Virus record (IMG/VR): IMGVR_UViG_3300037264_002389
Span: 10,545-74,544 of that record
Direction: 5' to 3' (one strand)
Source of the DNA: a virus
Taxonomy: Duplodnaviria; Heunggongvirae; Uroviricota; Caudoviricetes
DNA: 64,000 nt
The translations under genes and the position numbers were made by a program. Positions 3,432 through 56,750 of this stretch are shown one piece after another (positions within the stretch are counted from its first letter, which is position 1; each line of letters starts with the position of its first letter). Below the pieces are notes generated by a model that saw only the letters and a program-made list of their open reading frames with translations, was not told the DNA's origin and ran no database searches.

Positions 3432-3497
3432 GTTATAGTTTACAGTAAAGCAAATATAATATGATCGCGGCGGGTATCATTAAGAGGAGAAAAACCC

Positions 3498-14290: not shown

Positions 14291-15994
14291 ATGCTGGCAC
14301 GTATCGTCGATAACCATTTCATATACTTGGATCAAGTTACACAGGGTATAGAAGAAAGTCTTATTGTTCATTTTAGCATTCGTGATCCACGTGCCTATCG
14401 TATGTCGGGGCCATGGGATGGATGGTATAGACGCTATAACACTAAAGAACAACGGCTTGCATTACCATTTTTAGATGAATTAAAGATTTGTTGTGATATT
14501 AATAATATTCCATTAGAGATTGTTGATGAGAGACCAGCACCCCAATACTCAGCCCCACAGGAAGACCAAATTACTGAAGATCTGGTGCCGAATATTAAAT
14601 TAGAATTATATCAGGTTAGATGTTTAAAAGTGTGTTGTCATGAAGAGATTGGTATTGTATCAGCAGTGACAGGTGCGGGAAAATCAGAGTTGATGTGTGG
14701 ATTGGTTAAAATGTTTCGCTGCCCAACTGTAATCATTACAGAACAAATAGTTGTTTTGGAGCAAATAGTCAAGCGATTAGAGGCACGCAATGTAGTTCAT
14801 AATAATGATGTTGGTATGTTTTGCCATGGTCATATGCCAGATGGGAATCTGGTTATAGTTGGCAGCATACAATCATTAAGTTCTCCACCAAAACCAGAAA
14901 AGAAGAAGATTAAAGTAACCATTAAGCAAGCTATTAAGCGTGTGACTGATTGGGCCAGGAAGCGTGATGAGCACATATTTAATATATTCCCACAAATATT
15001 AGCTGACTCTCTTTGTGATAATCCGTCTGGGGTAATGTGCTTACAAGGGAAATATCTACAATTATTAATTGATTATTGTATTGAACTTGAGTGGGAGCGG
15101 GTACGACATGCCTACTATACTAGGCATCAACATGCAAAACAAATTCAAGACGAAGTCGCCAAATGCGATCTATTGATCGTGGATGAATGTGATCTGGCCT
15201 CAACAACTAATTATTCTAAACTTTTTAAGCGCTATTTTAATGGGCGTAGGCGATTTGGATTTAGTGGAACTCCGTTTGATAAATCGAAGCCAGTTCAGGC
15301 ACTTTTCTTGAAAGAGAATTTGGGCAATGTAATCGCCGAGGCAACGCGTGAGGAAGTCCAGAGTCGGGGTAGGATAATACCCATTAAGATGTTTATGATT
15401 GGAATTGGTGAAGATGGCGATAAGGATGATGCGCGAGCTTATGATATAGCAATGCGCGAGGAGATGATTGAGAGTCATTCGTTTCATCAGTCAGTAGCAA
15501 ATATTGTATCGGCTTTTCCAAAAGATGGTACTTTAATACTTGTCGATACATCTCCAATTGAACCATTGGGTAATGCACTACAAGGAATAATTCCTCACTC
15601 AAAATTTATCTTTGGTGGTACTCCTAAGACGGAGCGTCGTAGATACATACAATTATTTGAGAGTAGACAATTAACTTGTTTGATAGGCAGCAAGATCTTG
15701 AAACGTGGGTTGGATCTGGAAGGTGGTGTCGAGAATCTAATAATAATCGGAGGTGGTGGGCAATGGTCTGATTTTGAACAGAAGGTAGGTCGAGCAGTAC
15801 GGGTGAACAAAAGGGGGTGGACGCGGATCTTCAGTTTCTTCTTCCTGAATAATAAATATTTGTATAAGCATTCCAGGGAGAATCTGAAGGCCATAGTGAG
15901 CATGGGTTATGATGCACGAGTCATCATTGGTGGAACAGAGATCGATGGCAAAGCTTTCGTCAAATCAAGATTCCGCATCACCAAAAATCGATGA
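14291..15994 (+). CDS. SF2 DNA/RNA helicase (DExD-box, possibly UvsW-like)
   Basis: Walker A TGAGKSE, Walker B LIVDECD, and a helicase-C-like LIGSKILKRGLDLEG. Confidence 0.7.
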   Translation: MLARIVDNHFIYLDQVTQGIEESLIVHFSIRDPRAYRMSGPWDGWYRRYNTKEQRLALPFLDELKICCDINNIPLEIVDERPAPQYSAPQEDQITEDLVPNIKLELYQVRCLKVCCHEEIGIVSAVTGAGKSELMCGLVKMFRCPTVIITEQIVVLEQIVKRLEARNVVHNNDVGMFCHGHMPDGNLVIVGSIQSLSSPPKPEKKKIKVTIKQAIKRVTDWARKRDEHIFNIFPQILADSLCDNPSGVMCLQGKYLQLLIDYCIELEWERVRHAYYTRHQHAKQIQDEVAKCDLLIVDECDLASTTNYSKLFKRYFNGRRRFGFSGTPFDKSKPVQALFLKENLGNVIAEATREEVQSRGRIIPIKMFMIGIGEDGDKDDARAYDIAMREEMIESHSFHQSVANIVSAFPKDGTLILVDTSPIEPLGNALQGIIPHSKFIFGGTPKTERRRYIQLFESRQLTCLIGSKILKRGLDLEGGVENLIIIGGGGQWSDFEQKVGRAVRVNKRGWTRIFSFFFLNNKYLYKHSRENLKAIVSMGYDARVIIGGTEIDGKAFVKSRFRITKNR

Positions 15995-17436: not shown

Positions 17437-17999
17437 ACCAAAATCAAGAATTAATAGAAATTCTTAGTTCTGTTACTGAACCAGAACAGCCAGATGAACC
17501 CATGCCTCCATCGCCAGCTACCCCGCCTGAACCTCAAATTAAAGAACCAGCATTGATTCAAGCTGAGCCATTAGAACCAAATCTCCCACCATCTGACTTA
17601 ATAAAAGCGCAGGATAACAAGAACATTAATGATAATTTCAAACGATTAATTGAATTGTTCGGAACATCAGTCAATGAAATAATTAACAATCAACATACTG
17701 ATAGAGAGCAAGTTGATAGTGCAATACAGATCGTTCAGGCGCAGATTAATACTATGATTCAGTCAGGGAATACAAAAGGCATTGGAGTCTATTTAGATGC
17801 ATGGGCTAGATTGTTACAGACTAAAGCAGAGGTTAATGCAAATGCGCCACGTTCAATGGATTCAATAGCTAAATTATTGTCAGCCGCAAAATCAAATGAT
17901 TTAATTATTAATCTTGGTGGAGGGGCAGCAAAGGGCACTCTTAATTTAGAAGAGTTATTATCACAACCCATGAAGGACGATATAGATGACTCAGCTTGA
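17433..17999 (+). CDS. candidate small terminase subunit (by position only)
   Basis: 188-aa ORF overlapping the large-terminase start by 14 nt; T4 gp16 sits in the same position. Confidence 0.3.
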   Translation: MNQNQELIEILSSVTEPEQPDEPMPPSPATPPEPQIKEPALIQAEPLEPNLPPSDLIKAQDNKNINDNFKRLIELFGTSVNEIINNQHTDREQVDSAIQIVQAQINTMIQSGNTKGIGVYLDAWARLLQTKAEVNANAPRSMDSIAKLLSAAKSNDLIINLGGGAAKGTLNLEELLSQPMKDDIDDSA

Positions 18000-19884
18000 G
18001 CAGATGGCATTATTGATCAAACGCTGTCAAGCTCAGCCGTCGTTTTTTATTGAAAACTTTTGTATAATTAAACATCCAAAAGCTGGTATTATTAAATTTA
18101 AATTGTTTAAATATCAGCGTAAATCAATTCAAGCCTATTTAAAATATCGCTACACAATTTATAGAAAGTGTCGTCAATCTGGAATATCAACTTTAGCTGG
18201 AGCATTTGCTCTATGGTATGGCATGTTTTTCTCAAATAAGAAAATATTAATTGTCAGTAAACGAGACGAAGATGCTAAAGAATTTTTAAAGAAGAATGTG
18301 AAAATACCTTATGAACATCTTCCAGACGAATTTAAGAACATCTATGGCAATCCGAACCCAGAAGCATCGGGTGGAATCTGGAATGAACACTCGGTTGGAT
18401 TTCCAAATGGCTCAGTCATTAAGAGTCTAACGTCAAGCAAAGACACAATGCGATCTGAATCAGCATCACTTAATATTATTGACGAAGCAGCGTTTATGCC
18501 ACACATGGATGAAATGTGGAGTGGTGCCCAACCGACGTTACAACACGGTGGATCGGTAATAGTAATCAGCACATGCCTAGGAGTCGGCAATTGGTATCAT
18601 GCCACATGGGATGACGCGGAAAAGGGTCAAAATGACTTTTATCCAATCCATATTAACTGGTGGGAGATGGATTGGGAAATCGCCTATAAAGATGAGTTTA
18701 ATGGTAAGATGAGAAAGATCAGCCCAGCTGCTGGCTTAAAAAAGTGTGAAACCAAAGAAGAAATAGAAAAATGGGGGCCATATTGGAGTCCATGGCTCGA
18801 AGAACAATATAGACAATTACAACGGAAAGGTGAAGCTCACAAGTTCAAACAAGAAGTGTTGGCTGAATTCATCGGATCAGGCAATACAGTCTTACCAGCT
18901 AACGTCTTAAAGCATATAGAGACAACAATTGATGATAAATATTGGATTGTTGGTAAAGTTGACTATGTTCACCCGGTTAGTAGTGATACTATTCAACTCG
19001 ACTTTAGTAATGAGCTAAAAATATGGCGTAAGCCAGTAAGACCAGAACCAGATCTAATCGAAAATGGTCGCGTCATCAAGCCAGGCGCATCTGGCCATTC
19101 ATACTCAGTTGGTGTTGACTTTTCATCAGGTGAAGATGAGGACTTCTCAGCAATTGTAGTAATTGATTGTGTTACTAAGGAACAAGTTGCAGAACTTAAT
19201 ATAAAAGTTCTCCCAGGCACAATAGTAATGATGGTTGATTATCTAGCCAGGTGGTATAACAATGCATTTGTAGTACCAGAACGTACAGGTATAGGAATAC
19301 CAATATGTAATTCGTTATACTATGATGTTGCTTATACCAACATCTATCGCATGAAGACACCATCAGGCCAGGTTAGCAAGAAGCTTGGATTCCCGACATC
19401 GCCAGCACATAAACCAGATCTTGAGAAAGCTCTTATGGATCACCTTGGAGAAGATGGTATAATATTATACAGTAGAAAACTCCTAGAACAACTACACATT
19501 TATGTGCATCTAGGCAATAGAAAAACGGGTCACACGAAGGGACCAGGTAATCATAGTGATCTTGCGATAGCACTTGGATTAGCATTAATTGGTATTCGTG
19601 ATGCTATAATAGCCGACACTAGTACCTTAACCCCGATGCATAATGTTTCTAACCAGAGTCCAGCTTTGACTGCACACGACACTATTAAAGTTTCTGATTT
19701 CTTAGAAAAAGGTGGTGTACAAGCATTATTGCCAATAGCCATGGGGCGCAAAATAGATAATCAGACCCTATCACCAGAAGAGGAATTGCAAAGATTTACT
19801 CACCAATTAGGTGGAATAATGCTTGGAACCAAATACAGTAACCCATTAATGAAAACGAGGAGACCCATAATACATAAACAGTAA
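17986..19884 (+). CDS. terL: terminase large subunit (gp17-like)
   Basis: ATPase motifs RQSGISTLAG (Walker A-like) and LNIIDEAAFMP (Walker B); C-terminal nuclease-like VGVDFSSGEDEDFSAIVVID; 632 aa. Confidence 0.85.
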   Translation: MTQLEQMALLIKRCQAQPSFFIENFCIIKHPKAGIIKFKLFKYQRKSIQAYLKYRYTIYRKCRQSGISTLAGAFALWYGMFFSNKKILIVSKRDEDAKEFLKKNVKIPYEHLPDEFKNIYGNPNPEASGGIWNEHSVGFPNGSVIKSLTSSKDTMRSESASLNIIDEAAFMPHMDEMWSGAQPTLQHGGSVIVISTCLGVGNWYHATWDDAEKGQNDFYPIHINWWEMDWEIAYKDEFNGKMRKISPAAGLKKCETKEEIEKWGPYWSPWLEEQYRQLQRKGEAHKFKQEVLAEFIGSGNTVLPANVLKHIETTIDDKYWIVGKVDYVHPVSSDTIQLDFSNELKIWRKPVRPEPDLIENGRVIKPGASGHSYSVGVDFSSGEDEDFSAIVVIDCVTKEQVAELNIKVLPGTIVMMVDYLARWYNNAFVVPERTGIGIPICNSLYYDVAYTNIYRMKTPSGQVSKKLGFPTSPAHKPDLEKALMDHLGEDGIILYSRKLLEQLHIYVHLGNRKTGHTKGPGNHSDLAIALGLALIGIRDAIIADTSTLTPMHNVSNQSPALTAHDTIKVSDFLEKGGVQALLPIAMGRKIDNQTLSPEEELQRFTHQLGGIMLGTKYSNPLMKTRRPIIHKQ

Positions 19885-19992: not shown

Positions 19993-22914
19993 TTGGAGTC
20001 ACTAATGCCTCTTAAATGGCAATTATGGGATCGAGTCCGCGCTTTTATGCGGCAAGCTCAGATCTACAGAACCGATAATTTATATCAAGACCAAGAGACA
20101 ATCGACAAGATAGTATATGGAGGACAATTTCTTGACTTTAGTAAACAATCGGCTCTATTTGAACAGACCAGTCTACAGATAAATCGTCTGGAGCGCTATA
20201 AAGATTATGACATGATGGACGAAGTAGGTGAAGTCAGTCTAGCACTTGACATGTACGCGGACGAATCAACATTAATTGATCCAGAACGAAAGCACTCAAT
20301 AATAGTAAAAGCCAAGCGTAAGGGTCTCAAGAAAATTGTAGAAGATCTATTATATAACACATTAATGATTGACAGAGAAATTAGACCATTGGTACGTTAC
20401 CTATGCAAATATGGCGACTTTGTATCAGAAATTATACCAACTAAGAACCGCGATGGAGTTGCATCATTCAAATTCATGAACGTCTATAATTTCACACGAG
20501 TTCAAACCAAATATGGTGATCTAGTCGGTTTCTATTACCAAGACGCCGGTCTAGCAGAACCACAATTCTTACACCCATGGCAAGTAATGCACCTAAGACT
20601 TACAAGTTATGAAACTGTGTATCACCCTTACGGGCGATGTAGCGCACTGTGCAGCACAGTGTGCACACCAACTGGTTATAAATTATTGAAAGATATTCAG
20701 AAAGGTGATCAAGTATATTCGTTTGATCTTAAGACACAAAAACCAGTTATTACTACCGTTCTTGATAAGGTCTTAAATGGCAAGAAGAAGACGTTAATTA
20801 TTAAGACTAAACATCGTTCAATTCAAGTTACACCAGAACACCCAATGTTGGCTATTATTAAGAATAATTATATTTGTGAAGAACAATTATGTAGAGGTAC
20901 CGACCGCAATAAGCCACATATTCGTAGGCAACATAAGAGAGATATTAAAACTAAACAGTATGTTTTAGCACAAGATCTGGTCAGAAATGATAAACTTGTA
21001 CTTCCGAAGCTACACAATCCTGGGGTTGATATTCCAATTGAATCATACAAAATTGCACAACAATATGATGGTAAGAGAATGTGCTTCCCGCAATATGTTA
21101 CTGAAAATTTTGCTAGATTGATTGGTTTTTTGATTGGTGATGGTTGGGTCCCAAATGGAGGTAGGACATTATGTTTTGCAGAAGGTGAATATCAAGAATT
21201 AAATAATAAATATATTAGTATTATTAAATTATTTAATTATGAATCAGAACCATATCGGCATATTATCAAGGATAAAAATGGGCAAGAAAAGAAACATGGT
21301 TATTTCACATTTAACTCCATAGAATTAGCTCAGACAATAGTTAATATGGGTCTTGTTGGTCGCTGTTATGAGAAACGTATTCCTAAATGGGTGTTTGTTG
21401 CTAAGGAAGAAATTAAGAAGGCATTTATTGAAGGGTTGGTCGATGCAGATGGTTCAACAAATATTGATGAATGGGATTGTGAGCGATATCAAATTGAATT
21501 AACCTCAGAAGAGTTAGTGAAAGATCTGAAGGTCTTATTAGATCAAATGAATATTAAGTGTGGGAATATTAGCAAGCGTAATCGCTCTGATCCGATTGTT
21601 GTGTTTGATGGTGAAGAATATGAACGTCGTGATTCATGGATTGTGTATTGGTATGATGCTAAGATGCCATCAGGTGATTTAATGCATATGGGTAAGCGTA
21701 GGACGAAGTACGACAATTCATCTGATGACTATCTGGTTGAATCTATCCTATCGATAGAAGACGGTGGCGAGGTTGAAGTTGGTGATATCCAGGTTTCAGA
21801 GCATCACAACTTCGTGGCCGATGGTGTTGTTATCCACAATTCGATGTTAGATGGTGGTCGTAAGGATTTCAAACGTCTTAGACTGATGGAAGATGCCGCG
21901 CTTGTCTACAGGCTGACCCGCGCCCCCGAAAAGCGGATTTTTAGTATTCCAGTTGGTAATATTCCACCTAAGGAAGTGCCACAATATATTGAGTTGCTTG
22001 CTCGTCAGATGAAGAAGCATAAGTTCGTTGATCCTGCTACTGGTCAAGTTAATGAGCGTTATAGTCCACTAATTCAAGATGATGATTTCTGGTTGCCTAA
22101 GAGAGCTGATGGCACCGGCCCAACTATTGATACTTTACCGGGTGCTGAGAACCTTGATCAGATTGCTGATATTGAATATTTCAAGAAGAAGATGGTGGCT
22201 GGATTAAAGATTCCGTTTAATCGGGTTGGTATTGGTGAACCAGCTGAGGCCGATGGACGCTCATTGGCTTCTGTTTCACCTGAGTTTGCCAAGGCGATTC
22301 AATGGGTACAGCGTGAAGTGGTAATGGGTATTAAGAAGATTGTGCTTGTTCATTTGGCACTTCGTGGGCATTCTGTTGACGATCTTAGCAGTTTTGATTT
22401 GTCAATGACCGCCGCAAGTGCGATCGATGAGTTATATCGTATTGAAACATGGAATACTAGATCTGATATTATGAAGAACCTGAAGGAGCTTGGCTTCTTC
22501 CCTGATGAATGGATTGTTGAGCGCTTTACGGATATGTCGCCAGATGAAATTGCGCTTATGAAGAAGCAGAAGGGTGTTATTGCGCCGGATGAAATGAAGG
22601 CTGAAGATGTACAAGATGATGAAACTCGTGATCTAATTCTTGAGTATAATAACTTGCGGCCACACAGAGAATTACAGATTGATAATAGACATGATGTTAT
22701 AATATTTGCACCACAGTTCTATGTTAATGCTAAGGAACTTGATGGTTTGAAGAATAAGGATGGCAAGTATATTGTCGAAAGTAGTGTTGCAGAGGACGAT
22801 GCAACCGCAGTTAAAAAAGAGACGCGTAATTTATTGATGGAGGAAGCTGGTCACAAATCAGTTGAAGTTGATAGTGTTGTTAAGCAAATGGACGATGTTC
22901 CTACAAAAGAATAA
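19993..22914 (+). CDS. portal protein (gp20-like) interrupted by an intein
   Basis: 973 aa; about 580 aa remain without the intein, consistent with T4 gp20 size. Lies directly downstream of terL and upstream of the prohead protease. Confidence 0.8.
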   Translation: MESLMPLKWQLWDRVRAFMRQAQIYRTDNLYQDQETIDKIVYGGQFLDFSKQSALFEQTSLQINRLERYKDYDMMDEVGEVSLALDMYADESTLIDPERKHSIIVKAKRKGLKKIVEDLLYNTLMIDREIRPLVRYLCKYGDFVSEIIPTKNRDGVASFKFMNVYNFTRVQTKYGDLVGFYYQDAGLAEPQFLHPWQVMHLRLTSYETVYHPYGRCSALCSTVCTPTGYKLLKDIQKGDQVYSFDLKTQKPVITTVLDKVLNGKKKTLIIKTKHRSIQVTPEHPMLAIIKNNYICEEQLCRGTDRNKPHIRRQHKRDIKTKQYVLAQDLVRNDKLVLPKLHNPGVDIPIESYKIAQQYDGKRMCFPQYVTENFARLIGFLIGDGWVPNGGRTLCFAEGEYQELNNKYISIIKLFNYESEPYRHIIKDKNGQEKKHGYFTFNSIELAQTIVNMGLVGRCYEKRIPKWVFVAKEEIKKAFIEGLVDADGSTNIDEWDCERYQIELTSEELVKDLKVLLDQMNIKCGNISKRNRSDPIVVFDGEEYERRDSWIVYWYDAKMPSGDLMHMGKRRTKYDNSSDDYLVESILSIEDGGEVEVGDIQVSEHHNFVADGVVIHNSMLDGGRKDFKRLRLMEDAALVYRLTRAPEKRIFSIPVGNIPPKEVPQYIELLARQMKKHKFVDPATGQVNERYSPLIQDDDFWLPKRADGTGPTIDTLPGAENLDQIADIEYFKKKMVAGLKIPFNRVGIGEPAEADGRSLASVSPEFAKAIQWVQREVVMGIKKIVLVHLALRGHSVDDLSSFDLSMTAASAIDELYRIETWNTRSDIMKNLKELGFFPDEWIVERFTDMSPDEIALMKKQKGVIAPDEMKAEDVQDDETRDLILEYNNLRPHRELQIDNRHDVIIFAPQFYVNAKELDGLKNKDGKYIVESSVAEDDATAVKKETRNLLMEEAGHKSVEVDSVVKQMDDVPTKE
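20662..21840 (+). mobile_element. intein with two-motif LAGLIDADG homing endonuclease
   Basis: N-terminal Cys candidates at 20638, 20650 and 20662, so the start is uncertain. LAGLIDADG blocks LIGFLIGDGW and IEGLVDADGS. Ends VVIHN (HN at 21835-21840) followed by Ser at 21841 as the +1 residue. Confidence 0.8.
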
Positions 22915-23007: not shown

Positions 23008-26000
23008 ATGGCACAGCCAATCAATCGTATTGACAATATTATCGAGATGGATGCCCGCAAGTTCTTAAGAATGCTTAATTCAGGGGCACCAAGTCAAATT
23101 ACAATCTTTAGTGAACGCGTTCAGGCCATGGGCGAGAAGATTGGTCGGAACTGGCAGTTGGTATCACTTGATAGCACTAGCATCATAATTGAAGACAAAG
23201 GCAATCACACCTATTATTGTGCCAGCATTGAACGTTTAGCTCAAGGTCGTGTCAAAATTGCGAATCCAAGACCAATTAAGATTACAGAATCAGAAAAACC
23301 CGAAATGTTCCACAAGAATGTTGTTGAGTTGATCGAAGCGATTGAGGATGAAGATACAAAGAAAGCCGATAGCTGTTTTAATCGTATCGCCCATCAACGC
23401 TTTCGGTCCAAGGTAATACCTGAGTCTGGCTTCATTACGACCTTAGACGGAATCTCACGATACATTCCGGTATCGAAGACTATTGTAAGTGAGAAATGTA
23501 AGCCAGAGATTATCAAGAAGATCTGCGAGGCATTAGTCGATACAGTCAAGGTTACTCGTGGACGTATCGTAGAGGCAGTATTCAATGAGAAGCCAGTTCA
23601 ATTCCCAGTAAGTGAATTAACTCGTAGACGTGTAGTTGCTCGATGCATGAAAGATGTTGCGAGCAAGGCATATACCTCCGAAGGATTCCAGAATCGGATT
23701 AAGCACATTGCGTCATTAGTCTGTGATGGCAAGATTAAAGAAGCGGTTCAGAATGCAATCGAGTTCTTGAAGGAAGAGCAAGAATTTTCTTTACTAAATC
23801 TTGCCGAGACACAGACACTGACCGCCAACACTCTGGCGGCAGTTGGTAGCTTTAATGATAAGTTAGCAGAAGATGTTGGAAAGCTCTTCTATAGGACTAA
23901 CTGCACAATCAACAAAGACAATATTATTAAAGAATGGCGAGAAGTGGCTAGAATGACCGAATTTGCGCCATTTGTTGAGAACGTTCATAAGCTCGCTGAA
24001 TCAAAGGACTTCGAGAAAGATTACCCAATATTCCTTGATGTTATATTCAATGAGGACATGACTACTAAAGCGGCGAAGGCCAAGATGTACCTCAATGCCC
24101 TCAAGGATATGCGTAATATCCTAGCCAATAGTGATGTCGATCAGGAATTGACAGAGTCAATTGATGAATATATCGTCAGACTTGAACGTTCCGCAGATCA
24201 TATTGATGATGCGACCTTAATGGAAATCGAAGAATTGGTAGCATCAACATCTGAGAATCTGCTTAATGATGTGAATAGTTTAGCTGATTATGATTCAATT
24301 CCTGAACCAAAAGATGCTGAACCAGAAACATTTGGTGATCAGGATCTTGGCGGAGCTGCTGGTGCGGGAGCTGGTGAAGGTGGCTTATCACTCCCACTGG
24401 GTGGCGAGGAGTCGGCAGCCCCTGAGGGTGGTGAGGGTGGTGAGGGTGGTGAGGCTGGTGAAGGTGGTGGTGAAGGTGATGAAGGTGAGGGCGAAGAAGG
24501 AGCTGGAGAGGAAGCAGAGGATATTCTCAAGGCCTTTGAGTCTAAAAAGACAAAGGGCACACCCATCTCAGAAATGGGCACGACAACAGCTAATATAGCT
24601 GTTGCGCCTCATGGACGGGTGGCCGAAGATAAATGCTCGAAATGTGGCGGCATGATTCAGGATGAAGTTTGTTCAGAATGTGGCCATGTGGCCGAGGATG
24701 AACTTGAGAAATATGAAGCCAAGTTATCGACTGCTGTTGCTTCTCTCAGTGAAGAACAACTTACGATTGAATTGAAGGAATGGCAGAAGAATCATAAGAA
24801 GTTCTTTGCAGAGGACGGCAATGAAAAGGCGGCTCGTACCCTTAAGGTTTACATTCTACATGCCAATAAGTTAAAGTCGAATGGCTTGGTAGAGAGTTTC
24901 AAGCAGATTCTGTTTGAGAACGTTGAGCCAGATCTGTCAGAAGTCAAGACTGATCCATATGCTTACAAGGCACCAAAAAATACCAAGATCGGTCACACTT
25001 ATAATAGTCTGAAAGAAGACCATGCCGAAATGCCGGGTAAGATGAAGCAGAGTAAAGAAGGTGGGCAAGTTGGTAGTAAGGAGACTGCCAAAGGCAATGC
25101 AATGGGCTGTGGCGGCGAAGAGGATCAGAATGTCGCCAAAGATGCAGGACATAAGGGCGCTCTTCTCAAGAAGGGTACTAAGACAGCTGCCGAAGATATT
25201 ACTTGCCCTGAATGCAAGCGTAATTCTGATCTTGCTGAATGCATGACAGCAGATGGTGCAGCCTGTCCACATTGTGGTGCAGATGTAACCGAGTTAATGA
25301 TTGAAGCCCTTGAAATTAAGGAGAACATCAAGGGTGCCGGTCATAAGATGGATCGGATTGATGGAGACAAGGGCAGTGTTGCTAAGACTACTGCTACTCA
25401 GTCAAATGGTGCCCGTGTTGGTGGTAGTGCTGATGGTATGGATGGTCAGGATGGTAAGGGAGTTACTGGTAGAGGTACATCTCAAAATGATGGACGAGGT
25501 GCAGGCGGCAAAAAAGATGGTATGGATGGTCAGGATGGTAAAGGAGTAACTGGTGCCGGGATGGGCAAGAGTGATGGTAAGTCTGGTGGATCTGCCGCTA
25601 AGGGAGTTGATGAGGATCAATATAAGAGTGGTATTAAACGTCGCCGGATGGCTTTCCCAGGTGCTGGTCGTGCAGCAATAACTAAGTCGGAGGCGACTAC
25701 CCCTAAGAATATGATTGAGGCTTTTGGCGATGAGTTAGGTGATAAATCGCTAGATGACGATATGCCTGAGGAGCCAGTAGGTGGCGCTATGGAGGGGCCG
25801 GTTGAGGAGCCGATGGAAGAGCCGATGGAAGAGCCGATGGAGGAGCCGATGGAGGGTGGTGCTATTGGCTCTCCATCTACGACTGTTACTGTCACCGGTT
25901 CTGAAGAGACTGATGATGGTCGTTCTAAGTCTCAGTCGGTTACTTGGACCACACCCGATACCGTTGATGATGTTGTAAGCAAGATTGCGGCTAGTCTTGA

Positions 26001-26538
26001 ACCTGAGATGGGTGGGCTTGATATGGGTGAAGAGCCTGGTGAGGGTCTGCCAGGTGAGGGTCTGCCAGGCGATGAGGGCTTGCCAGGTGGCGAGGTTCCA
26101 GAAGATGACATGATGCCACCAGATGAAGACGAAATGGAATTGCCTGGTAGTGAAGGCGAAGAGGGTGGTGAAGAGGGTGGTGAAGGGGGCGGACCACCTC
26201 CTGGTATTACGGAGCCAGAAGAAGGTGAGGGAGAGGAAGAAGAGGAAGAGGAAGAAGAGGTAGAAGAAGGTAAACTACCAGCTCACTTAAAGAAATTTAA
26301 ATTTGGTAAGAAGAAAGATGATTCGTCAGATGATGAATCAGATGAATCAGACGAATCATCGAAAGATGCCGTAAAAGAAGACAATAATATTGGTAAGCCA
26401 ACCGATAAGGGCCACGATAGTGTTGAAACCGCTCGTAAGGATGGCGGTGGCAAGCAGATGAATCCGAAGCCAAAATGGTCCGATAAGGACTATGATGGAA
26501 CTAAAGGTGCAAAGACAGCTAAGAGTGGAGATAAGTAA
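23008..26538 (+). CDS. very large acidic low-complexity protein with two Cys4 zinc ribbons (candidate prohead core or internal protein)
   Basis: 1176 aa; GEGGEGGEAGEGG, DGMDGQDGKGVTG x2, (EEPM)x4, EEEEEEEE runs, DESDESDES. CSKCGG...CSECGH and CPECKR...CPHCG zinc-ribbon pairs. Occupies the gp67/gp68/IP position. Confidence 0.6.
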   Translation: MAQPINRIDNIIEMDARKFLRMLNSGAPSQITIFSERVQAMGEKIGRNWQLVSLDSTSIIIEDKGNHTYYCASIERLAQGRVKIANPRPIKITESEKPEMFHKNVVELIEAIEDEDTKKADSCFNRIAHQRFRSKVIPESGFITTLDGISRYIPVSKTIVSEKCKPEIIKKICEALVDTVKVTRGRIVEAVFNEKPVQFPVSELTRRRVVARCMKDVASKAYTSEGFQNRIKHIASLVCDGKIKEAVQNAIEFLKEEQEFSLLNLAETQTLTANTLAAVGSFNDKLAEDVGKLFYRTNCTINKDNIIKEWREVARMTEFAPFVENVHKLAESKDFEKDYPIFLDVIFNEDMTTKAAKAKMYLNALKDMRNILANSDVDQELTESIDEYIVRLERSADHIDDATLMEIEELVASTSENLLNDVNSLADYDSIPEPKDAEPETFGDQDLGGAAGAGAGEGGLSLPLGGEESAAPEGGEGGEGGEAGEGGGEGDEGEGEEGAGEEAEDILKAFESKKTKGTPISEMGTTTANIAVAPHGRVAEDKCSKCGGMIQDEVCSECGHVAEDELEKYEAKLSTAVASLSEEQLTIELKEWQKNHKKFFAEDGNEKAARTLKVYILHANKLKSNGLVESFKQILFENVEPDLSEVKTDPYAYKAPKNTKIGHTYNSLKEDHAEMPGKMKQSKEGGQVGSKETAKGNAMGCGGEEDQNVAKDAGHKGALLKKGTKTAAEDITCPECKRNSDLAECMTADGAACPHCGADVTELMIEALEIKENIKGAGHKMDRIDGDKGSVAKTTATQSNGARVGGSADGMDGQDGKGVTGRGTSQNDGRGAGGKKDGMDGQDGKGVTGAGMGKSDGKSGGSAAKGVDEDQYKSGIKRRRMAFPGAGRAAITKSEATTPKNMIEAFGDELGDKSLDDDMPEEPVGGAMEGPVEEPMEEPMEEPMEEPMEGGAIGSPSTTVTVTGSEETDDGRSKSQSVTWTTPDTVDDVVSKIAASLEPEMGGLDMGEEPGEGLPGEGLPGDEGLPGGEVPEDDMMPPDEDEMELPGSEGEEGGEEGGEGGGPPPGITEPEEGEGEEEEEEEEEVEEGKLPAHLKKFKFGKKKDDSSDDESDESDESSKDAVKEDNNIGKPTDKGHDSVETARKDGGGKQMNPKPKWSDKDYDGTKGAKTAKSGDK

Positions 26539-27248
26539 TGTTAGCGACTATGAAACCTAGAATTGATCGGGATAAGGTCTTCTACACGGGCCTTATTCCC
26601 GATGGTTATCAATTAATTCAAGATTCACGACCACTTAAGGTTCTAGACATTAAGCGTGGTACGATATCCGAAGAAAGAGATGGTAAGAATTTCGAAGTAC
26701 CAGTAATGCGTGTTGTTGGTGTATTCCAAAGAGCCAATGAGAAGAATGCTAATGGCCGGATCTACCCTAAGTCTGTTCTTGAATCAGCGGTTAAATCCAT
26801 ACAGTCTGCAATTAAAGAACGCCGAGTAATGGGTGAGTTTGATCACCCACCAGATGCTAAGATCCATCTTGACCGTGTATCGCATCTCATTACTAACTTG
26901 TCGATGGATGGAAATAATGTGGTTGGTGAAGCAGAAGTCATGAATGATGATCGGATGCCATGTGGTTCAATGTTAGCTTGTCTATTGGAACGTAAGGTTC
27001 AAGTTGGCGTATCGTCTCGTGGTGTTGGTGAGATGGATCTAACTAGACATGAAGGTGAAGATGCATACGAAGTTCAAGAGGGTTATGCATTAGTAACTTT
27101 CGATACGGTTGCCGAGCCTTCAGTGTCTGGGACACAATTGAAGGTGATGGAAGAGAGTTTAAACCGCCATAAGTTGAATTCCAGGCAGTTCCGCGTGATG
27201 CGTGAGCGCCTGTTAGTAAGAGAATTGAGGAAGTACCTGGTTAGTTGA
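26538..27248 (+). CDS. prohead core protease (T4 gp21-like)
   Basis: NEKNANGRIYPKSVLESAVKSI vs gp21 VNRNKRLYPKRILEKAVKDY; GEFDHPP vs GELNHPP; GVSSRGVGE vs GVSSRGLGS. Confidence 0.85.
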   Translation: MLATMKPRIDRDKVFYTGLIPDGYQLIQDSRPLKVLDIKRGTISEERDGKNFEVPVMRVVGVFQRANEKNANGRIYPKSVLESAVKSIQSAIKERRVMGEFDHPPDAKIHLDRVSHLITNLSMDGNNVVGEAEVMNDDRMPCGSMLACLLERKVQVGVSSRGVGEMDLTRHEGEDAYEVQEGYALVTFDTVAEPSVSGTQLKVMEESLNRHKLNSRQFRVMRERLLVRELRKYLVS

Positions 27249-27290
27249 CGATACCCTTAGGCAAAAATAATTTTCGAAGGAGATCGGAGC

Positions 27291-28013
27291 ATGGACAAGA
27301 TCATCGGCCTTTTGAAGCAGCTGGGAGCTTCCGATCAGCTATCTAAGTCAGTTGTAAGCGAGCTGAATGCGTGGAGAGCTGCTGAAGAAAAAGCGCTCAA
27401 CGAGAATTATGAGCGCAAACTAGTCAAGGCTAAACAAGCTTGCCTAGAAGCAGTTGAGAGTTATAAGGCCGATATTGCTAAGCGAATTGAGATCTTCCTT
27501 GAAGCACGAGTAAACACGATCAATCGGGAAGCGCAGAAGCAAGCCGCTGTGGGTGAATCCGAGGCAGCCAGGACACTGAGAGGGGTAAAATCCCTCATTG
27601 AAGGTGTCAAAATTGACTTGCCAGAGGGGAACCAGGTTGCGGTGGAAGAAACCAAGAAGCTGCGCGTCATGGTTGGTCAGCTGCAAGAGAAGCTTGAAGC
27701 ATCCGAACAGTCCAAGCGACATGCTAACATCATCGCTCGCAAACTGCTCGAACGTAACAAGCTCCTCGAAGCCAAGGGTGGCGCAGTAACAGAAGATAAG
27801 ACTGTAACTGAGTCAACCGAAGCCAAAAAGACAGAGCGACTTGAGGATCTTCGTGCTAAGAGCGAAAATCCTAAAACCACTAGGCCAGCAGCGGTTGAAA
27901 CCATTGCTAAGCCGAGTGTCAAGTCAACTGTCTCTCAGCAAGCTGGCGACCAAGATGTAATGGCAATCGCCGAAGGACTTGATGGAAGTCCGGCGTTGGT
28001 AATCACCGAATAA
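27291..28013 (+). CDS. prohead scaffold protein (gp22-like)
   Basis: 240 aa; Ala/Glu/Lys-rich coiled-coil character; sits between protease and capsid genes; GC-rich like the capsid gene. Confidence 0.6.
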   Translation: MDKIIGLLKQLGASDQLSKSVVSELNAWRAAEEKALNENYERKLVKAKQACLEAVESYKADIAKRIEIFLEARVNTINREAQKQAAVGESEAARTLRGVKSLIEGVKIDLPEGNQVAVEETKKLRVMVGQLQEKLEASEQSKRHANIIARKLLERNKLLEAKGGAVTEDKTVTESTEAKKTERLEDLRAKSENPKTTRPAAVETIAKPSVKSTVSQQAGDQDVMAIAEGLDGSPALVITE

Positions 28014-28038
28014 GGCCCCTAAACCTGGAGAAGTAACA

Positions 28039-44691: not shown

Positions 44692-44768
44692 CGCAGGCGG
44701 CTAGGGCTGGCTGCTCTGGAGAGGCCCATAACCTTTCAACGAGAGTTCGATTCTCTCGCCTGCTACCA
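44692..44768 (+). ncRNA. tRNA-like RNA element, candidate tRNA-like module of a Y RNA
   Basis: Canonical T-arm gagag-TTCGATT-ctctc, 7-bp acceptor-like stem with a 1:72 mismatch, discriminator A plus CCA. Anticodon-like stem-loop agagg-CCCAUAA-ccttt (CAU). No foldable D-arm and no U8 or U33. Lies immediately upstream of a Ro60 gene. Confidence 0.5.
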
Positions 44769-52049: not shown

Positions 52050-52958
52050 ATGGACAAACGACAGCAAAAACTAGAACGAAAACGCAAAAAACGCAACAAG
52101 CTTAGGCAAGAACACCTATGTAAGCGTGGTCTTGAACGGAAAAGCTTACTCCGCGATTACCTAATGCGCGGCCAATATGTCCTACCAAAGCACTGTCTCC
52201 CATCCAAAGACGACATGGACGGCTGGCACGACATTAATGCCATTCGAGACCGTGCCAAAATTATGACTAAAGCTATCGAATTATTCGATACAGACGTCAC
52301 TCTTAAAGAGTATTTGGACGGTCATCTAAACATCCACGACAACCAAAAACGAAAGAAATTAAACGAAATTTTTAGTATCGCTGCACAAGAATTATGTTGC
52401 AAACCACCTTACTTCATACCCCATATGACCATGATAGCTGATGGCAGATATTACGCACCAGCACTAAGCCTCTACCTACTCAAGAAAAAAGGCACAGGAC
52501 CAGGAACCCTCTGGTACGACCTCGAAAACATTCTAGAAATTGATTCCAAACACGTCCTATTCTCAACCCACGCCATAGAGCGCATCATAGCTAGACTGGA
52601 CCTCGTCAAAAACAAATACACGAAAAACACACTGTCTATACTCCTATTCTCGCGTATGAAATTAGGCCCAATGGCAGCAGCTAGAGGCGAACCACTACTA
52701 CAACTATATAATGAACCACTCTATGGCGATACAGAACCATTCGGATACTGCCCAATCTCATATAACAAAGACATCATAGTAGCCACCACCTACCTATTAC
52801 CAGGCATGTCTGGCACCCCAGAAGGAGTAGTCCTCAGAATGGCCGGAGAATATCCAGCAATCAACAACATTAATGATTTAGAGGAGAATAAGGAGAAATT
52901 TGAGAAGGCTGGACTACCGACATTCATTAGTGAGAAGGACGATTCACAAAAGACATGA
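52050..52958 (+). CDS. hypothetical protein
   Basis: 302 aa with a basic N-terminus. Confidence 0.45.
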   Translation: MDKRQQKLERKRKKRNKLRQEHLCKRGLERKSLLRDYLMRGQYVLPKHCLPSKDDMDGWHDINAIRDRAKIMTKAIELFDTDVTLKEYLDGHLNIHDNQKRKKLNEIFSIAAQELCCKPPYFIPHMTMIADGRYYAPALSLYLLKKKGTGPGTLWYDLENILEIDSKHVLFSTHAIERIIARLDLVKNKYTKNTLSILLFSRMKLGPMAAARGEPLLQLYNEPLYGDTEPFGYCPISYNKDIIVATTYLLPGMSGTPEGVVLRMAGEYPAINNINDLEENKEKFEKAGLPTFISEKDDSQKT

Positions 52959-53862
52959 CTCTTTGGGCTTTTCTATCGAGATATAATGTACAGTTTGTGT
53001 ATAATGCTCTTCCTATGAGTAAGGCGTCGTGACCGCACCACCAGGTATTGTAGATTAGTTGTTTTGATATTTTGTTTATTTTAATGGTTTCCTGATATTG
53101 TGTCAATACTAATTTAATGATTTGTGTTTGAACCCACTCTATTATCGGATAATGTCGGCTGCAGAATCCCAATCTTAGATAACGATTTTTATTGTGGGTA
53201 ACAGTTCCATCACCATCCCACAATCCGCGTAAGAAATGTTTCATGTTTAGATTAAGTTTTTCTAATTTGATAATGCCTTGCTTATATTCTGGCCAACCAG
53301 CTTGTTGATAGAATTCATATAATTCTTTATTATTAATAGAGATGTAGGCTCTGTCGAATGTTTTACCAGCGCATCTGACTTGACCTTTCTTTGGTTGGAT
53401 TGTGCTTTTTAATGATCTAGATAATTTATATAAGTGGCCAATATCTTTGTAAGCTAGATTTATTCTAATACGATGTGTAGTTTTTGGCATATACCCGTCA
53501 CTTAGGAAGAAACCAAACCAGTAACTGCCAGTCTCACTTGATAGATCCATAATGTCGGTTAGATCGAGATCATAATGGCGGGCAGCTGTACTTCGGTCTC
53601 GTAGTTCGACATTATGCTTCTTTAACTGCATCGCGACTACTATTGCACTACATCTGAATCTTTTTGCTATGTCATATGTGCTCATGCCTGAATTGTATAA
53701 GGAGGTAGCCAAAGTTGTATTGACCTTCATTGGCGTTGGTGGACGTGGTTTTATTTTGTTTTCTCTGAGTATTTTATATATGGTTTTATCGTTTACATGG
53801 TACTTTCGCGCTAGTTTTCTTATACCAGTCCCAGAAATGTATTCGGTGACGATGTTTATCAA
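52927..53862 (-). CDS. free-standing LAGLIDADG homing endonuclease with N-terminal HTH modules
   Basis: LRGLWDGDG and WFGFFLSDG motifs; two HTH-like segments (IRKLARKYHVNDKTIYKIL; TYDIAKRFRCSAIVVAMQL); minus strand among + genes. Confidence 0.6.
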   Translation of the reverse strand: MINIVTEYISGTGIRKLARKYHVNDKTIYKILRENKIKPRPPTPMKVNTTLATSLYNSGMSTYDIAKRFRCSAIVVAMQLKKHNVELRDRSTAARHYDLDLTDIMDLSSETGSYWFGFFLSDGYMPKTTHRIRINLAYKDIGHLYKLSRSLKSTIQPKKGQVRCAGKTFDRAYISINNKELYEFYQQAGWPEYKQGIIKLEKLNLNMKHFLRGLWDGDGTVTHNKNRYLRLGFCSRHYPIIEWVQTQIIKLVLTQYQETIKINKISKQLIYNTWWCGHDALLIGRALYTNCTLYLDRKAQRVMSFVNRPSH

Positions 53863-53930: not shown

Positions 53931-56750
53931 ATGGCTAAGTTACCAGATGTTGATAATCTTGTTGATTCTCAATTTTTCCAGGTCCCTTTAAGCGATGGTT
54001 TATTAGCAGGGTTTAGCTACGATTCGCAGACTCGTTCGTTAATTCAAAAAGAATCACAGGTGATCGTACCGAGTCGCCATGGCATGACCCATGTCGCGGA
54101 GGACCCCGTACCAGATGCGTCATGTGATCTACATGGTTTGATGTCTGCCGACGATAAGTGTAAGTTGGATGCGATGTTGCAGATGCGTTTGGGGATTTTG
54201 GGTTTTCAAGGAAGTGGTTTCCCAGATGATGGTGGCTTCTTGGTTGGCGATGTTGTCTTGGCCGCTGGTAGCGAGTTTATTAGCATAGAACGCATTGGTA
54301 ATACGATCAGGTTTACGGTTGATTCTCCGTTGCCTTTGAATTGTGCGTGTGAGGAATGTGCTAGGATTTTTTGGATTCAGGATGAGTCTGAGGCTCGTGC
54401 GATTCGTCCTCCATCGTGCAATGGTGTGATGCCTGATGTTAATACTTATGGCGAGTTGAAGATTTATACCTTCCCTGAATCTACTCTTCTTGATGTTACT
54501 GATCCGCTGGCTACTTTAAATCGGAAGGGTGAATTTCCGGCGTTGGTGTTTAAGCGTTTTGATGATGCGGTTACGCCTGGTCAGAATGAGTTTGAGATGG
54601 TTCTGAAGCGTAATGCTAATCTTACTTCTAATGTTGGTTGGGCTTTTACGCCTGGTGCTCAGGGTATTGCGCAGTGTGTTTGGTTTATGGGCAATGCTAA
54701 TGATGGTTCGCAGATGAAGTTTGAGTTGGCTCCTGAGGTTGAGCCTGGGTTGTTGGGTTCGTTGTTGTTTATGGGGCATTTGATTACTAAGCAGATGGCA
54801 GTGGTTGTTGATGTTGATCAGAATGTTCTTAGTAATAATCAGTATGTGTTACGTAAGTGGGACATTCAGGGTGCCAAGCCGCTTGGTCAGAGTTTTACCG
54901 CTACAAATGTTTGGATGTATAATAATCCTGAAAATTCTCCAACTGCGATTAGTAATCCACGTACTTTGACGCTTGATAGCACTAAATCGATCATTCCGAT
55001 TGGTTCGTTGATTGAGATTTGGGAGTTCGAGATTACTCGTAATTCGCAGCAGCGGGTTACGAGGCATTTCTTTAGTAAAGAACCTCAGCTAAATCCGTCG
55101 TCGTTGTGGGCTTTGGCTGATGCTTTACAATTCGGTGATCTATTTGCTGCTCGTGAGGAGATTAATGATCCTCAGAGTGATACTGCAGTGTCTGCTTCTG
55201 AGATCGATGTGTCAGATAAGCGTTTATTGGAGAAGACGTTGTGGGGTTTGACCAATTTTGAGGATAGATTACTATTGTCCGATGATGGTGGTGAGGTTGA
55301 ATCTTCGGATGGCATTATTCGTCGTGAGCCGTCTGGTGAGCCGGTTAATAATGACATCGTGGCTGATATTGATCCTACTTTGCCTGGTTTGAGAGTGGTG
55401 CATCAAGCTAAGAGTTTAATTGCTGATATTAATGGAGATGGGATAGTAGATGATGAGGATTTAAGATTATTCATGTGTGCGTATAATACGACGATTTTTG
55501 ATGCTAAGTATAATCCTGGGGCTGATTTTAATGCCGATGGTAAGGTTGATGTGCGTGATCTCTCCATTCTTGGTCAACAGTTTGATTTGAATATTGAGAA
55601 GGTTAGCGATAGACCGGTGTTCCTATGGCATCGGCAGAATCATAAGAATATCTTGTTGAAGTTTAAGATTGGTATGCCAGATTCTGTGCAACAGAAGACA
55701 TTCCCACCATATGATTTGTTATTGTCTGCACCTGTTGATAGTTTCGATGACACTTATCTTAAGATTGTTAAGCGTGGTGTGTTTACTACTGGCCCGTTTG
55801 CTGGTTTGCCGTTTGTAGTTGCCAAGGGGATGCGTTGGGAGGATATGCCAGATCGGGGCGTACTACGGATTTTGACCGGTGCGTTTAGAAATGGGGTGTG
55901 GCCATATCAGTTTAAAGCGGCGTTTGCTAACTGGGATGACGATGGGATTACGTTGATTGGTTCTGGGGATGTTTTCCCATTCGATGAGGATTTCCCGATT
56001 GGTGATTTGGCTACTGGTTGTGATGTTGAAGCTACGGGTGCGGATGTGACGGGTTGTCCTACGGATGGTTGTCCTCCAATTGAGAGCACAGCTGCTACTG
56101 AGGTGACCGCTGCTATTTCTGAGATTGAAGCGGTTGAGGTTCCTGCAAATTCGACTGTGGTTGAATTGTTACGGCAGGATTTTACCGCTCCTTGTGTGAG
56201 GTTCCAATTTAGTGTCAATACTGATTCTGGCAGTGAGTCAGTGCAGTTGCAGGTGAAGGTTGGACTATTAGACATGAGTGTGCCATATGAGTTGAATGAT
56301 TCGATTGATCCTGTTGATGATTTGGTGCGTGGATTCCGTGCGGGTGCTGCTGTTAGTCGTGTGTTTACTCAATCTGGTATTATTACTGATGGTGTGGGTT
56401 TAGATGTTACGTCTGATCCTGAAGGTTTTAGGGTGTATTCCGGTGGAGAGTTAGATGTTCCGGTGAATGGTCAGGTTGAGAAGTGGAATGATGTTGAAAT
56501 TATGTTTAGAGATGGTCAGGTGTGGGTTTGGTGGAATGGGCTATTGATTACTCCGGATACGGTGGAGTCGGCGAGTTTGACTTCTCCGGTTGCTGTTAAT
56601 ACTCCATATTTCCCGTTGAACCCACAGGTTGCTATTGGGAAGGTTGCGTTTAGGCTGTTCCCTGGGGCTACGATGCGGTTTGTTGAGGTTAGGGACCAGC
56701 TTGAAGCTTTTACAGAATTTAGTAAGGGTCAGTTACAGCTGACTAATTGA
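53931..56750 (+). CDS. large virion or fibre-like protein with an internal dockerin-like duplicated Ca-binding segment
   Basis: 939 aa; DINGDGIVDDEDLRLF ... DFNADGKVDVRDLSILGQQF (nt ~55425-55590) matches the duplicated DxNxDGxVxxxDL dockerin repeat; RBS ataggaggtaatta. Confidence 0.6.
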   Translation: MAKLPDVDNLVDSQFFQVPLSDGLLAGFSYDSQTRSLIQKESQVIVPSRHGMTHVAEDPVPDASCDLHGLMSADDKCKLDAMLQMRLGILGFQGSGFPDDGGFLVGDVVLAAGSEFISIERIGNTIRFTVDSPLPLNCACEECARIFWIQDESEARAIRPPSCNGVMPDVNTYGELKIYTFPESTLLDVTDPLATLNRKGEFPALVFKRFDDAVTPGQNEFEMVLKRNANLTSNVGWAFTPGAQGIAQCVWFMGNANDGSQMKFELAPEVEPGLLGSLLFMGHLITKQMAVVVDVDQNVLSNNQYVLRKWDIQGAKPLGQSFTATNVWMYNNPENSPTAISNPRTLTLDSTKSIIPIGSLIEIWEFEITRNSQQRVTRHFFSKEPQLNPSSLWALADALQFGDLFAAREEINDPQSDTAVSASEIDVSDKRLLEKTLWGLTNFEDRLLLSDDGGEVESSDGIIRREPSGEPVNNDIVADIDPTLPGLRVVHQAKSLIADINGDGIVDDEDLRLFMCAYNTTIFDAKYNPGADFNADGKVDVRDLSILGQQFDLNIEKVSDRPVFLWHRQNHKNILLKFKIGMPDSVQQKTFPPYDLLLSAPVDSFDDTYLKIVKRGVFTTGPFAGLPFVVAKGMRWEDMPDRGVLRILTGAFRNGVWPYQFKAAFANWDDDGITLIGSGDVFPFDEDFPIGDLATGCDVEATGADVTGCPTDGCPPIESTAATEVTAAISEIEAVEVPANSTVVELLRQDFTAPCVRFQFSVNTDSGSESVQLQVKVGLLDMSVPYELNDSIDPVDDLVRGFRAGAAVSRVFTQSGIITDGVGLDVTSDPEGFRVYSGGELDVPVNGQVEKWNDVEIMFRDGQVWVWWNGLLITPDTVESASLTSPVAVNTPYFPLNPQVAIGKVAFRLFPGATMRFVEVRDQLEAFTEFSKGQLQLTN

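Follow-up and report, generated by a model that had tools for sequence, protein, structure and literature searches.

The portal gene of the myovirus represented by our window, the whole 64,000-nucleotide stretch of viral DNA analysed here, very probably carries an in-frame, canonical class 1 intein with a double-motif LAGLIDADG homing endonuclease nested inside it. A LAGLIDADG-bearing intein within the portal gene had been proposed in a sequence-only reading of this DNA, and the proposal is borne out by Pfam matches, a structure model, a gap in orthologous portals and conservation of the junction. The gene and its surroundings are laid out as follows.

17986-19884, + strand: large terminase subunit (TerL) with a T4-type N-terminal domain (Pfam Terminase_6N, 32.5 bits)
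20005-22914, + strand: gene for the 112-kDa portal precursor (969 aa and a stop codon), with Portal_T4 and 3JA7 matches
20005-20637, + strand: N-extein, 211 aa, ending in YHPYGR, delimited by alignments with intein-less orthologues (A1 and A2)
20638-21840, + strand: intein of 401 aa and 46.3 kDa, in which a LAGLIDADG endonuclease is nested within a class 1 Hint splicing domain
21841-22914, + strand: C-extein, 357 aa plus stop, beginning S-M-L-D-G-G-R-K, with Ser+1 as the predicted second nucleophile
26538-29619, + strand: prohead protease (Peptidase_S77), a 240-aa ORF and a Gp23-type major capsid protein

The portal ORF (19993-22914, + strand) is one unbroken frame of 973 codons from a TTG. 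Its true start is probably the ATG at 20005, with the stop ending at 22914, because orthologues begin MPL... and this ATG is preceded, at a distance of 9 nt, by a GGAG; the precursor would then be 969 aa long. The Pfam Portal_T4 model matched the ORF with an E-value of 3.7e-65, broken into two stretches, and the solved T4 gp20 structure (PDB 3JA7) matched the extein with an E-value of 1.4e-23 over the stem and clip region. Together with the TerL-portal-protease-capsid module, the family model and the solved gp20 place the protein among the T4 gp20-type portals (PF07230). The likeness to T4 extends to the neighbours of gp20, namely TerL, a gp21-type protease and a Gp23-type capsid protein, and the TerL/portal gene order is the same in L004. 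However, the window portal shares about 22% overall identity with a T4-type gp20, that of phage RB10, and has an extra acidic C-terminal tail of 100 aa relative to T4 gp20, which also has no intein; syntenic relatives lie on contigs of up to 372 kb. Resemblance to T4 is confined to the head module (TerL, gp20, gp21-type protease and Gp23-type capsid protein), so that the earlier description of a T4-like phage holds for the morphogenetic genes and fails elsewhere.

We located the insertion site by comparison with portals that have no insert. Rather than aligning straight through the region, intein-less orthologues (nine in alignment A1 and seven in A2; 57-75% identical and 544-650 aa long) showed a clean gap of 401 residues between YHPYGR and S(I/L/M)LDGGRK. 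One such intein-less portal gene is syntenic, on a contig of 371,794 bp. The sequence-only reading had recognised the excess length of the portal and put it at about 390 aa; measured against intein-less orthologues, the excess is 401 aa. Its coordinates for the insert, 20638-21840, were exact: the Cys cluster CSALCSTVC opens the insert at ORF aa 216 (nt 20638), VVIHN closes it at aa 616 (nt 21840), and the codon directly after the insert (21841-21843) encodes Ser. Removal of the insert gives a predicted spliced portal of 568 aa with a computed mass of 65.7 kDa, in agreement with the approximately 65 kDa expected beforehand. The alignment to RB10 gp20 and the 3JA7 match map the site between K248 and N249 of T4 gp20, approximately 6 residues before stem helix alpha5 (as placed in the gp20 structure, PMC4493910). 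The site motif is contiguous in intein-less orthologues and in RB10 gp20.

The residues and blocks of a splicing domain are found at both ends of the insert.

20638-20676, + strand: block A, CSALCSTVCTPTG, with Cys1 (nt 20638-20640) as the predicted N-terminal nucleophile
20830-20841, + strand: block B, T65-P-E-H68 (TxxH), with H68 invariant in alignment A3
21763-21840, + strand: blocks F and G, GGEVEVGDIQVSEHHNFVADGVVIHN, including D383, H400 and N401

When the insert was searched alone, Pfam Intein_splicing (PF14890) scored 45.5 bits against a cut-off of 35.8 and LAGLIDADG_3 scored 34.7 bits against 22.5; a profile search for the Hint blocks, proposed as a check on the original claim, thus returned both families above their curated cut-offs, at a level far exceeding chance. 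In phmmer alignments, blocks F and G paired with the C-terminal ends of two DnaB inteins, those of Ssp and Npu. Alignment A3 shows no variation at C1 or G13; the 15 closest alleles all have T65, H68, D271, D383, H400 and N401, and 14 of them also have D168. Among all 41 homologues with an intein at this site (PYGR/S, termed site b), Cys1, the terminal HN and Ser+1 are each kept without exception, and the HN-Ser junction is therefore conserved as expected of an intein C-terminus. With Cys1, TxxH, D383, HN, Ser+1, a Hint fold and an in-frame insertion that orthologues do not have, the insert is confirmed by every sequence hallmark as a class 1 intein, and splicing is predicted. We also considered class 3, in which the N-terminal nucleophile is absent and a Trp(B)-Cys(F)-Thr(G) triplet supplies a block F Cys nucleophile. 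This assignment was rejected, as Cys1 is present, block F has D383 and no Cys in GDIQV, and block G reads VVIHN. The composition of the intein is shifted modestly, by approximately 1.5 SD: its GC content is 35.5%, versus 39-42% in the exteins, and 3.3% of equal-sized windows are as low.

Between the Hint blocks lies the endonuclease, with both of the motifs that the sequence-only reading had named.

21088-21642, + strand: endonuclease domain, covering roughly intein aa 151-335 and modelled as alpha-beta-beta-alpha-beta-beta-alpha repeats
21118-21147, + strand: LAGLIDADG motif 1, LIGFLIGDGW, predicted catalytic residue D168
21427-21456, + strand: LAGLIDADG motif 2, IEGLVDADGS, predicted catalytic residue D271

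An AlphaFold (AF2) model of the intein had a pLDDT of 93.6 and a pTM of 0.89. Each motif carries its acidic residue (D168 or D271) at the penultimate position, as in double-motif LAGLIDADG enzymes, and the order of helices and strands across model residues 156-330 is that of the pseudo-dimeric alpha-beta-beta-alpha-beta-beta-alpha fold. The best Foldseek matches in the PDB, with intein structures at a probability of 1.00, were endonuclease-bearing inteins: TliVMA (7qss; E 1.3e-19, TM 0.66), PI-SceI, PI-TkoII and PI-PfuI. Free LAGLIDADG enzymes matched one half of the model (I-Tsp061I, I-SceI and I-DmoI, E 6e-6 to 5e-4) and mini-inteins matched the other. The solved class 1 inteins TliVMA/PhoVMA (7QSS, 7QST), PI-SceI (1VDE), PI-TkoII (2CW7) and PI-PfuI (1DQ3) resemble the window's intein in having a Hint domain split by a double-motif LAGLIDADG endonuclease, and in Cys1, TxxH and a terminal HN followed by the nucleophile; for this group, Foldseek E-values ran from 1e-19 to 1e-13, with TM-scores of up to 0.66. 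They differ in sequence (12-18% identity) and in host protein, which is a V-ATPase, polymerase or RNR rather than a phage portal. A sequence search against the PDB gave significance only to the C-terminal Hint blocks of the intein.

Based on this anatomy, we infer splicing, DNA cleavage and the cleavage target as follows. The 112-kDa precursor would be made as a single chain and would pass through four steps: (i) an N-S acyl shift at Cys1, helped by T65 and H68 of block B; (ii) attack on the thioester by Ser+1, giving a branched intermediate; (iii) cyclisation of Asn401, aided by H400 and by D383 of block F, which would free the 46-kDa intein; and (iv) an O-N shift that would leave R211 bonded to S212. 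The product would be a 65.7-kDa gp20-type portal able to form the dodecamer that initiates head assembly. The portal is essential, so an insert of 401 aa immediately ahead of the stem helix would be expected to kill the phage if it did not splice out. In the homing cycle, the endonuclease of the freed intein, with D168 and D271 coordinating a metal ion, would cut the intein-less portal allele of a co-infecting relative at the ...CCTTACGGGCGA/TCGATGTTAGAT... junction (slash, insertion point), and repair off the intein-bearing copy would spread the element.

To place this intein among its relatives, we called site-b carriers by their junction pattern, which gave 42 including the window. An earlier count from a MAFFT alignment of all 121 portals was discarded, as inteins at neighbouring sites merged into the same columns and carriers were overcounted (44). 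On a neighbour-joining tree of the exteins, the intein is present in 42 of 121 tips, in a homologue sample that is biased towards carriers because the query contained the intein, and at least 23 gain or loss steps are needed; among the window's nearest neighbours, tips with and without the intein alternate. The residue at the +1 position of intein-less alleles is S (70), A (8) or G (1). The allelic inteins, from uncultured jumbo-phage portals (P0001-P0052), share the insertion point (PYG[RK]/C...HN/S) and are 26-87% identical as inteins. The site-b family contains full-length and mini forms, and the window's intein is a distinct allele; its nearest relative shares 87% identity with it, and 95% over the flanking extein. 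Four of the homologues (P0001, P0009, P0010 and P0016) had been named 'intein/homing endonuclease' by JGI, the nearest orthologue among them. A search with the intein alone returned four proteins, including related inteins in non-portal exteins (P0121 and P0124); this search says little on wider distribution, because it missed alleles known from the full-portal search.

Whether the endonuclease is still a homing enzyme is the point at which the evidence divides. An intein that splices normally could be fixed and vertically inherited, its endonuclease inactive in homing and kept for folding, stability or another role; we consider this unlikely, though the likeliest of the alternatives. In comparison with L006, an 89%-identical IMG/VR orthologue whose DNA was used for P0001, dS is 1.2 for the intein and 1.2-2.6 for the extein, and across alleles the identity of the intein falls with that of the extein. 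These similar values and parallel declines point to long vertical inheritance in this lineage and not to a recent acquisition. Moreover, the close allele P0006 carries D168N and G272S, and seven same-site alleles are mini-inteins with no endonuclease, so decay and loss of the endonuclease do occur in the site-b family. Against an idle domain, dN/dS relative to L006 is 0.079 for the endonuclease, low like that of the splicing domain (0.055 for Hint-N and 0.018 for Hint-C), although these values are approximate because dS between the window and L006 (approximately 1-2.6) is near saturation. A dN/dS of about 0.08 thus indicates that purifying selection acts on the endonuclease domain. The window's intein, like most full-length alleles, retains the two motifs and their catalytic Asp residues undamaged, and the many gain or loss steps, with close relatives that have no intein, are what one would expect if the homing cycle were still running. 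The intact catalytic residues, the low dN/dS and the patchy distribution suggest that the window's portal gene may mark an active homing site.

The remaining alternatives concern the insert as a whole. It could be a permanent accessory domain derived from Hint and LAGLIDADG modules that stays unspliced in the mature portal, and Hint-derived non-splicing domains of the bacterial intein-like kind do exist and were among the weaker Foldseek matches. We regard this as highly improbable, since all 41 alleles keep, without variation, the residues that the four splicing steps require, Ser+1 among them, the insert splits a contiguous motif just ahead of alpha5, and orthologues function with no such domain. 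Domains of that bacterial kind are typically found in variable regions of non-conserved proteins, have no endonuclease and often lack a +1 nucleophile; assignment to that class was rejected on the conserved motif at the site (from the clade to RB10 gp20), the presence of an endonuclease and the invariant Ser+1. An artefact, either a chimeric contig or a group I intron whose endonuclease ORF happens to be in frame, is scarcely credible. Metagenomic assemblies are sometimes chimeric, and jumbo and crAss-like phages carry many group I introns (PMC12880540, PMC7886860), but the frame is open and continuous across both junctions, and the junction recurs in 41 independently assembled homologues and in GenBank LR756508.1. 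Hint blocks flanking the endonuclease are the architecture of an intein and not of an intron ORF, and an Rfam scan of the whole window found no intron family at the gathering threshold. A scan for promoters and terminators around the portal gene found nothing beyond chance, and no sign of a separately transcribed endonuclease.

We also considered whether splicing might be conditional and serve as a head-assembly checkpoint, for example through a redox-sensitive disulfide between Cys1 and Cys5 or Cys9, so that the intein would be no mere passenger. If this were true, the assembly-competent portal, the nucleator of the prohead, would be made only under certain intracellular conditions. Since portals of this jumbo-phage family accept inteins at six or more sites, with as many as three per gene, maturation by serial splicing may also be a trait of the lineage. 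We hold this to be a long shot, and redox control through the Cys cluster is speculation: P0001 alone has a matching Cys5, and no allele of the 41 has Cys9.

Portal inteins have been documented in mycobacteriophages, actinophages and prophages (Kelley et al. 2016, PMC5050341; bioRxiv 10.1101/2025.01.02.630785; Novikova et al. 2016, PMC4760082). They resemble the present case in interrupting the portal of a tailed phage, in that many carry LAGLIDADG endonucleases, and in occurring sporadically among close relatives. Their hosts are different: SPP1 Gp6/Mu F-type or IPR009279-labelled portals, in actinobacteriophages and prophages. None of the portal inteins in these three reports could be placed in a gp20-type portal (Pfam Portal_T4) or at PYGR/S. 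In a collection of 50,697 phage records, the site-b intein occurred in no isolate phage, and the sole record was the metagenomic LR756508.1, which has an intein at the same junction; a protein search of deposited phages gave no close relative. The close portal family has at least four intein sites, with two more in LR756508.1 and up to three in one gene, and all sites but one lie at or near the portal's stem and clip, the parts lining the DNA channel. Inteins favour conserved, essential sites that handle nucleic acids, and the clustering at the stem and clip fits this preference. Judged from these sequences, inteins have repeatedly targeted the portal gene in this clade of uncultured jumbo phages.

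For annotation, the 973-codon ORF should be split into a portal of 568 aa and a mobile element of 401 aa, and the intein should be stripped before this portal is compared, modelled or placed on trees. A compact, apparently intact Cys1/Ser+1 intein with a new LAGLIDADG specificity is a candidate reagent for protein engineering or genome editing, albeit of modest practical value. The finding leaves current understanding unchallenged, as it is an ordinary example of a well-known selfish element. If the intein splices as predicted, the head-assembly initiator of this phage would be a product of protein splicing.

The portal gene is one open frame (19993..22914, plus strand; 973 codons counted from TTG). 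Because portal orthologues start MPL... and a GGAG lies 9 nt upstream of the ATG at 20005, the precursor most likely begins at that ATG and comprises 969 aa. Pfam identified Portal_T4 in the ORF (E 3.7e-65), split in two stretches, and the 401-aa insert alone matched both Intein_splicing (45.5 bits; cut-off 35.8) and LAGLIDADG_3 (34.7 bits; cut-off 22.5). The insert is real, far beyond chance. The sequence-only reading had placed it at 20638-21840, and we found these coordinates to be exact, including the following landmarks:

20638, plus strand: insert start, CSALCSTVC
21118-21147, plus strand: LAGLIDADG motif, LIGFLIGDGW
21427-21456, plus strand: LAGLIDADG motif, IEGLVDADGS
21840, plus strand: insert end, VVIHN; next codon Ser

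Searching a database with the complete ORF gave 410 homologues: many of 950-1060 aa (intein plus LAGLIDADG domains), some of 1150-1615 aa, and many of 544-650 aa (portal domain only). Related portals do not align through the insert: orthologues that lack the intein (57-75% identity to the spliced sequence) have a clean gap that opens right after ...YHPYGR and closes right before S(I/L/M)LDGGRK, as does the T4-type gp20 of phage RB10. The HN|S junction is conserved, since all 41 inserts found at this PYGR|S point (site b) among the homologues inspected begin with Cys and end with His-Asn, followed by Ser. In intein-less alleles the residue after the junction is Ser in 70, Ala in 8 and Gly in 1.

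All class 1 intein blocks are present in the insert:

Cys1: block A, with the standard spacing C-x4-S-T-V-x-T-x2-G
T65-x-x-H68: TxxH motif
D383: block F
H400-N401, then Ser+1: intein C-terminus and extein nucleophile position

The two LAGLIDADG motifs, with acidic residues D168 and D271, are nested between the Hint halves. The 15 closest alleles share all nine residues (Cys1, T65, H68, D383, H400, N401, Ser+1, D168 and D271), except that D168 is Asn in one of them, P0006. An AlphaFold2 model based on 35 sequences was highly confident (pLDDT 93.6, pTM 0.89). Its best matches among solved structures were endonuclease-bearing inteins, namely TliVMA (7QSS; E 1.3e-19, TM 0.66), PhoVMA, PI-SceI, PI-TkoII and PI-PfuI; the middle of the model matches the free LAGLIDADG enzymes I-Tsp061I, I-SceI and I-DmoI, and the ends match mini-inteins. 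When PDB inteins were compared by sequence only, the C-terminal Hint blocks alone reached a match. Based on the class 1 blocks, Pfam domains, fold and clean gap, an intein with a LAGLIDADG homing endonuclease in the portal gene, as the sequence-only reading proposed, is correct both as observation and as interpretation. It is an ordinary, well-formed representative of a known class.

From established knowledge of the family, the standard four-step class 1 pathway most likely excises the intein, which would leave a 65.7-kDa portal and release an intein of 46.3 kDa (computed masses). During co-infection, the element would spread through LAGLIDADG-mediated double-strand breaks in intein-less alleles and subsequent gene conversion. 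Conditional splicing could in principle serve as a checkpoint in head assembly; we consider this very improbable, because the extra cysteines close to Cys1 are not conserved among alleles.

Inteins usually occupy conserved, functionally critical places, and the insertion point in this portal is such a place. For site mapping we used RB10 gp20 (gene 20 annotated in KM606999.1), in whose alignment extein K219 corresponds to gp20 K259; counting back from this pair puts the insertion point at gp20 K248|N249. In the gp20 structure, residue 254 is the last of the wing domain, and alpha5, the stem helix, covers 255-278 (PMC4493910), so the intein lies about 6 residues before the stem helix lining the DNA channel. 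Unspliced precursor would probably be unable to assemble.

The portal exteins match the T4 gp20 structure 3JA7 (E 1.4e-23), and the gene sits within a T4-type morphogenetic module:

3498-6362: tail sheath
14291-15994: helicase
17986-19884: TerL, with the portal next
23008..26538, plus strand: 1176-aa acidic ORF, between portal and prohead protease
26538-27248: Peptidase_S77 prohead protease
28039-29619: Gp23-type capsid protein

The 1176-aa ORF has long acidic low-complexity tracts rich in Gly/Glu/Pro and CxxC pairs (weak zinc-ribbon hit), and could act as a scaffold or be an internal protein of the head. A syntenic relative without the intein (L004, on a 371,794-bp contig) carries a 1064-aa ORF in the corresponding place. 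The portal is only ~22% identical to T4-type gp20, and no phage at least 60% identical was found among deposited phages. Given these values and the contig of L004, the earlier description of the phage as T4-like stands for the core module only (TerL, portal, protease, Gp23-type capsid); the lineage looks like that of uncultured jumbo phages.

Three further features were observed in the window:

44695..44768, plus strand: tRNA-Met (CAU), single gene
52927..53862, minus strand: free-standing LAGLIDADG homing endonuclease (311 aa) that has helix-turn-helix domains at its N-terminus
53931..56750, plus strand: 939-aa ORF that scores above cut-off for a Dockerin type I domain (25.8 bits), unusual in a phage structural region

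The free-standing endonuclease (LAGLIDADG_3, 33.3 bits, above cut-off) lies amid plus-strand genes, has only weak similarity to that of the intein (tblastn E 0.01-0.1), and represents another selfish element in the window, independent of the intein.

Among the 121 tips of a neighbour-joining tree built from intein-free extein cores, 42 have the site-b intein, which requires at least 23 steps of gain or loss; in 500 shuffles the number of steps averaged 35 and never fell below 27. Intein presence alternates among the neighbours closest to the window (P0001 with, P0027 without, P0002 with, P0045 without). In a comparison with L006 (from IMG/VR; 89% amino acid identity), the closest orthologue for which DNA was available, the endonuclease domain had a dN/dS of 0.079, Hint-N 0.055, Hint-C 0.018 and the extein cores 0.01-0.04, ratios that are approximate at a dS of 1-2.6. 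The endonuclease is therefore under purifying selection. Intein dS is similar to extein dS and intein identity follows extein identity; in the window's lineage it is an old element that has been inherited together with the exteins and did not arrive recently. Its compositional shift is mild: GC is 35.5% (GC3 28%) versus 39-42% (GC3 35-36%) in the exteins, and only 3.3% of equal-sized windows have GC as low. DNA identity to the intein-less L004 allele is 77% around the junction versus 69% across the whole extein.

Inteins in phage portal genes are already established: mycobacteriophages of cluster C1 have six (PMC5050341), those of actinobacteriophages fall into five separate groups (bioRxiv 10.1101/2025.01.02.630785), and 14 are known from prophage portals of the SPP1 Gp6/Mu F type (PMC4760082). 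Dense loads of inteins and introns have also been reported for crAss-like and Jug jumbo phages (PMC7886860, PMC12880540). Our literature search found no paper on an intein at site b of a gp20-type portal, and JGI automatic annotation already labels the nearest orthologues "intein/homing endonuclease".

Two relatives of the intein occur elsewhere. One, 46% identical, is in a non-portal protein (P0121) with an N-flank, EPYGR, that resembles the portal site and a C-extein starting CDFLVREGRTHHVIEVKAGG; the other (P0124), 27% identical, interrupts a trypsin-like protease within its catalytic-serine motif, GN|SGG.

The portal of the window's clade is a recurrent intein target. Junction sequences of the close portal family define at least four sites, all except site a at or near the stem and clip of the DNA channel:

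Site a: YADE(S/A)|SL(I/V)DPE
Site b: PYGR|S, occupied in the window
Site c: YR(L/I)|TRAPEKR, at the stem/clip boundary
Site d: LPKR|SDGTGP, aligned to the inner loop of the clip, close to gp20 R338

Seven site-b alleles are mini-inteins of 136-165 aa. The homologues noted for these sites are P0046, P0050, P0051, P0085 and P0101, and up to three inteins occur in one gene (P0046, P0050, P0051). P0021 (residues about 212-764) holds two complete abutting inteins at site b (...GMAIHN|CIKVGTP..., then ...GIIVHN|SILDGG), Cys1 of the second doubling as the +1 residue of the first. The unannotated portal gene of GenBank record LR756508.1, a 484-kb uncultured huge phage, has three in-frame inteins (about 3400-6100): a mini-intein at site b, PYG(K)|S, and two at sites beyond the four, KQL|TLLEDA and LEGK|STLSQQ, the last ending in KN rather than HN and bearing an HNH-like motif. 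The least ordinary aspect of the finding is this multi-site intein load of the jumbo-phage portal family, outside the window itself.
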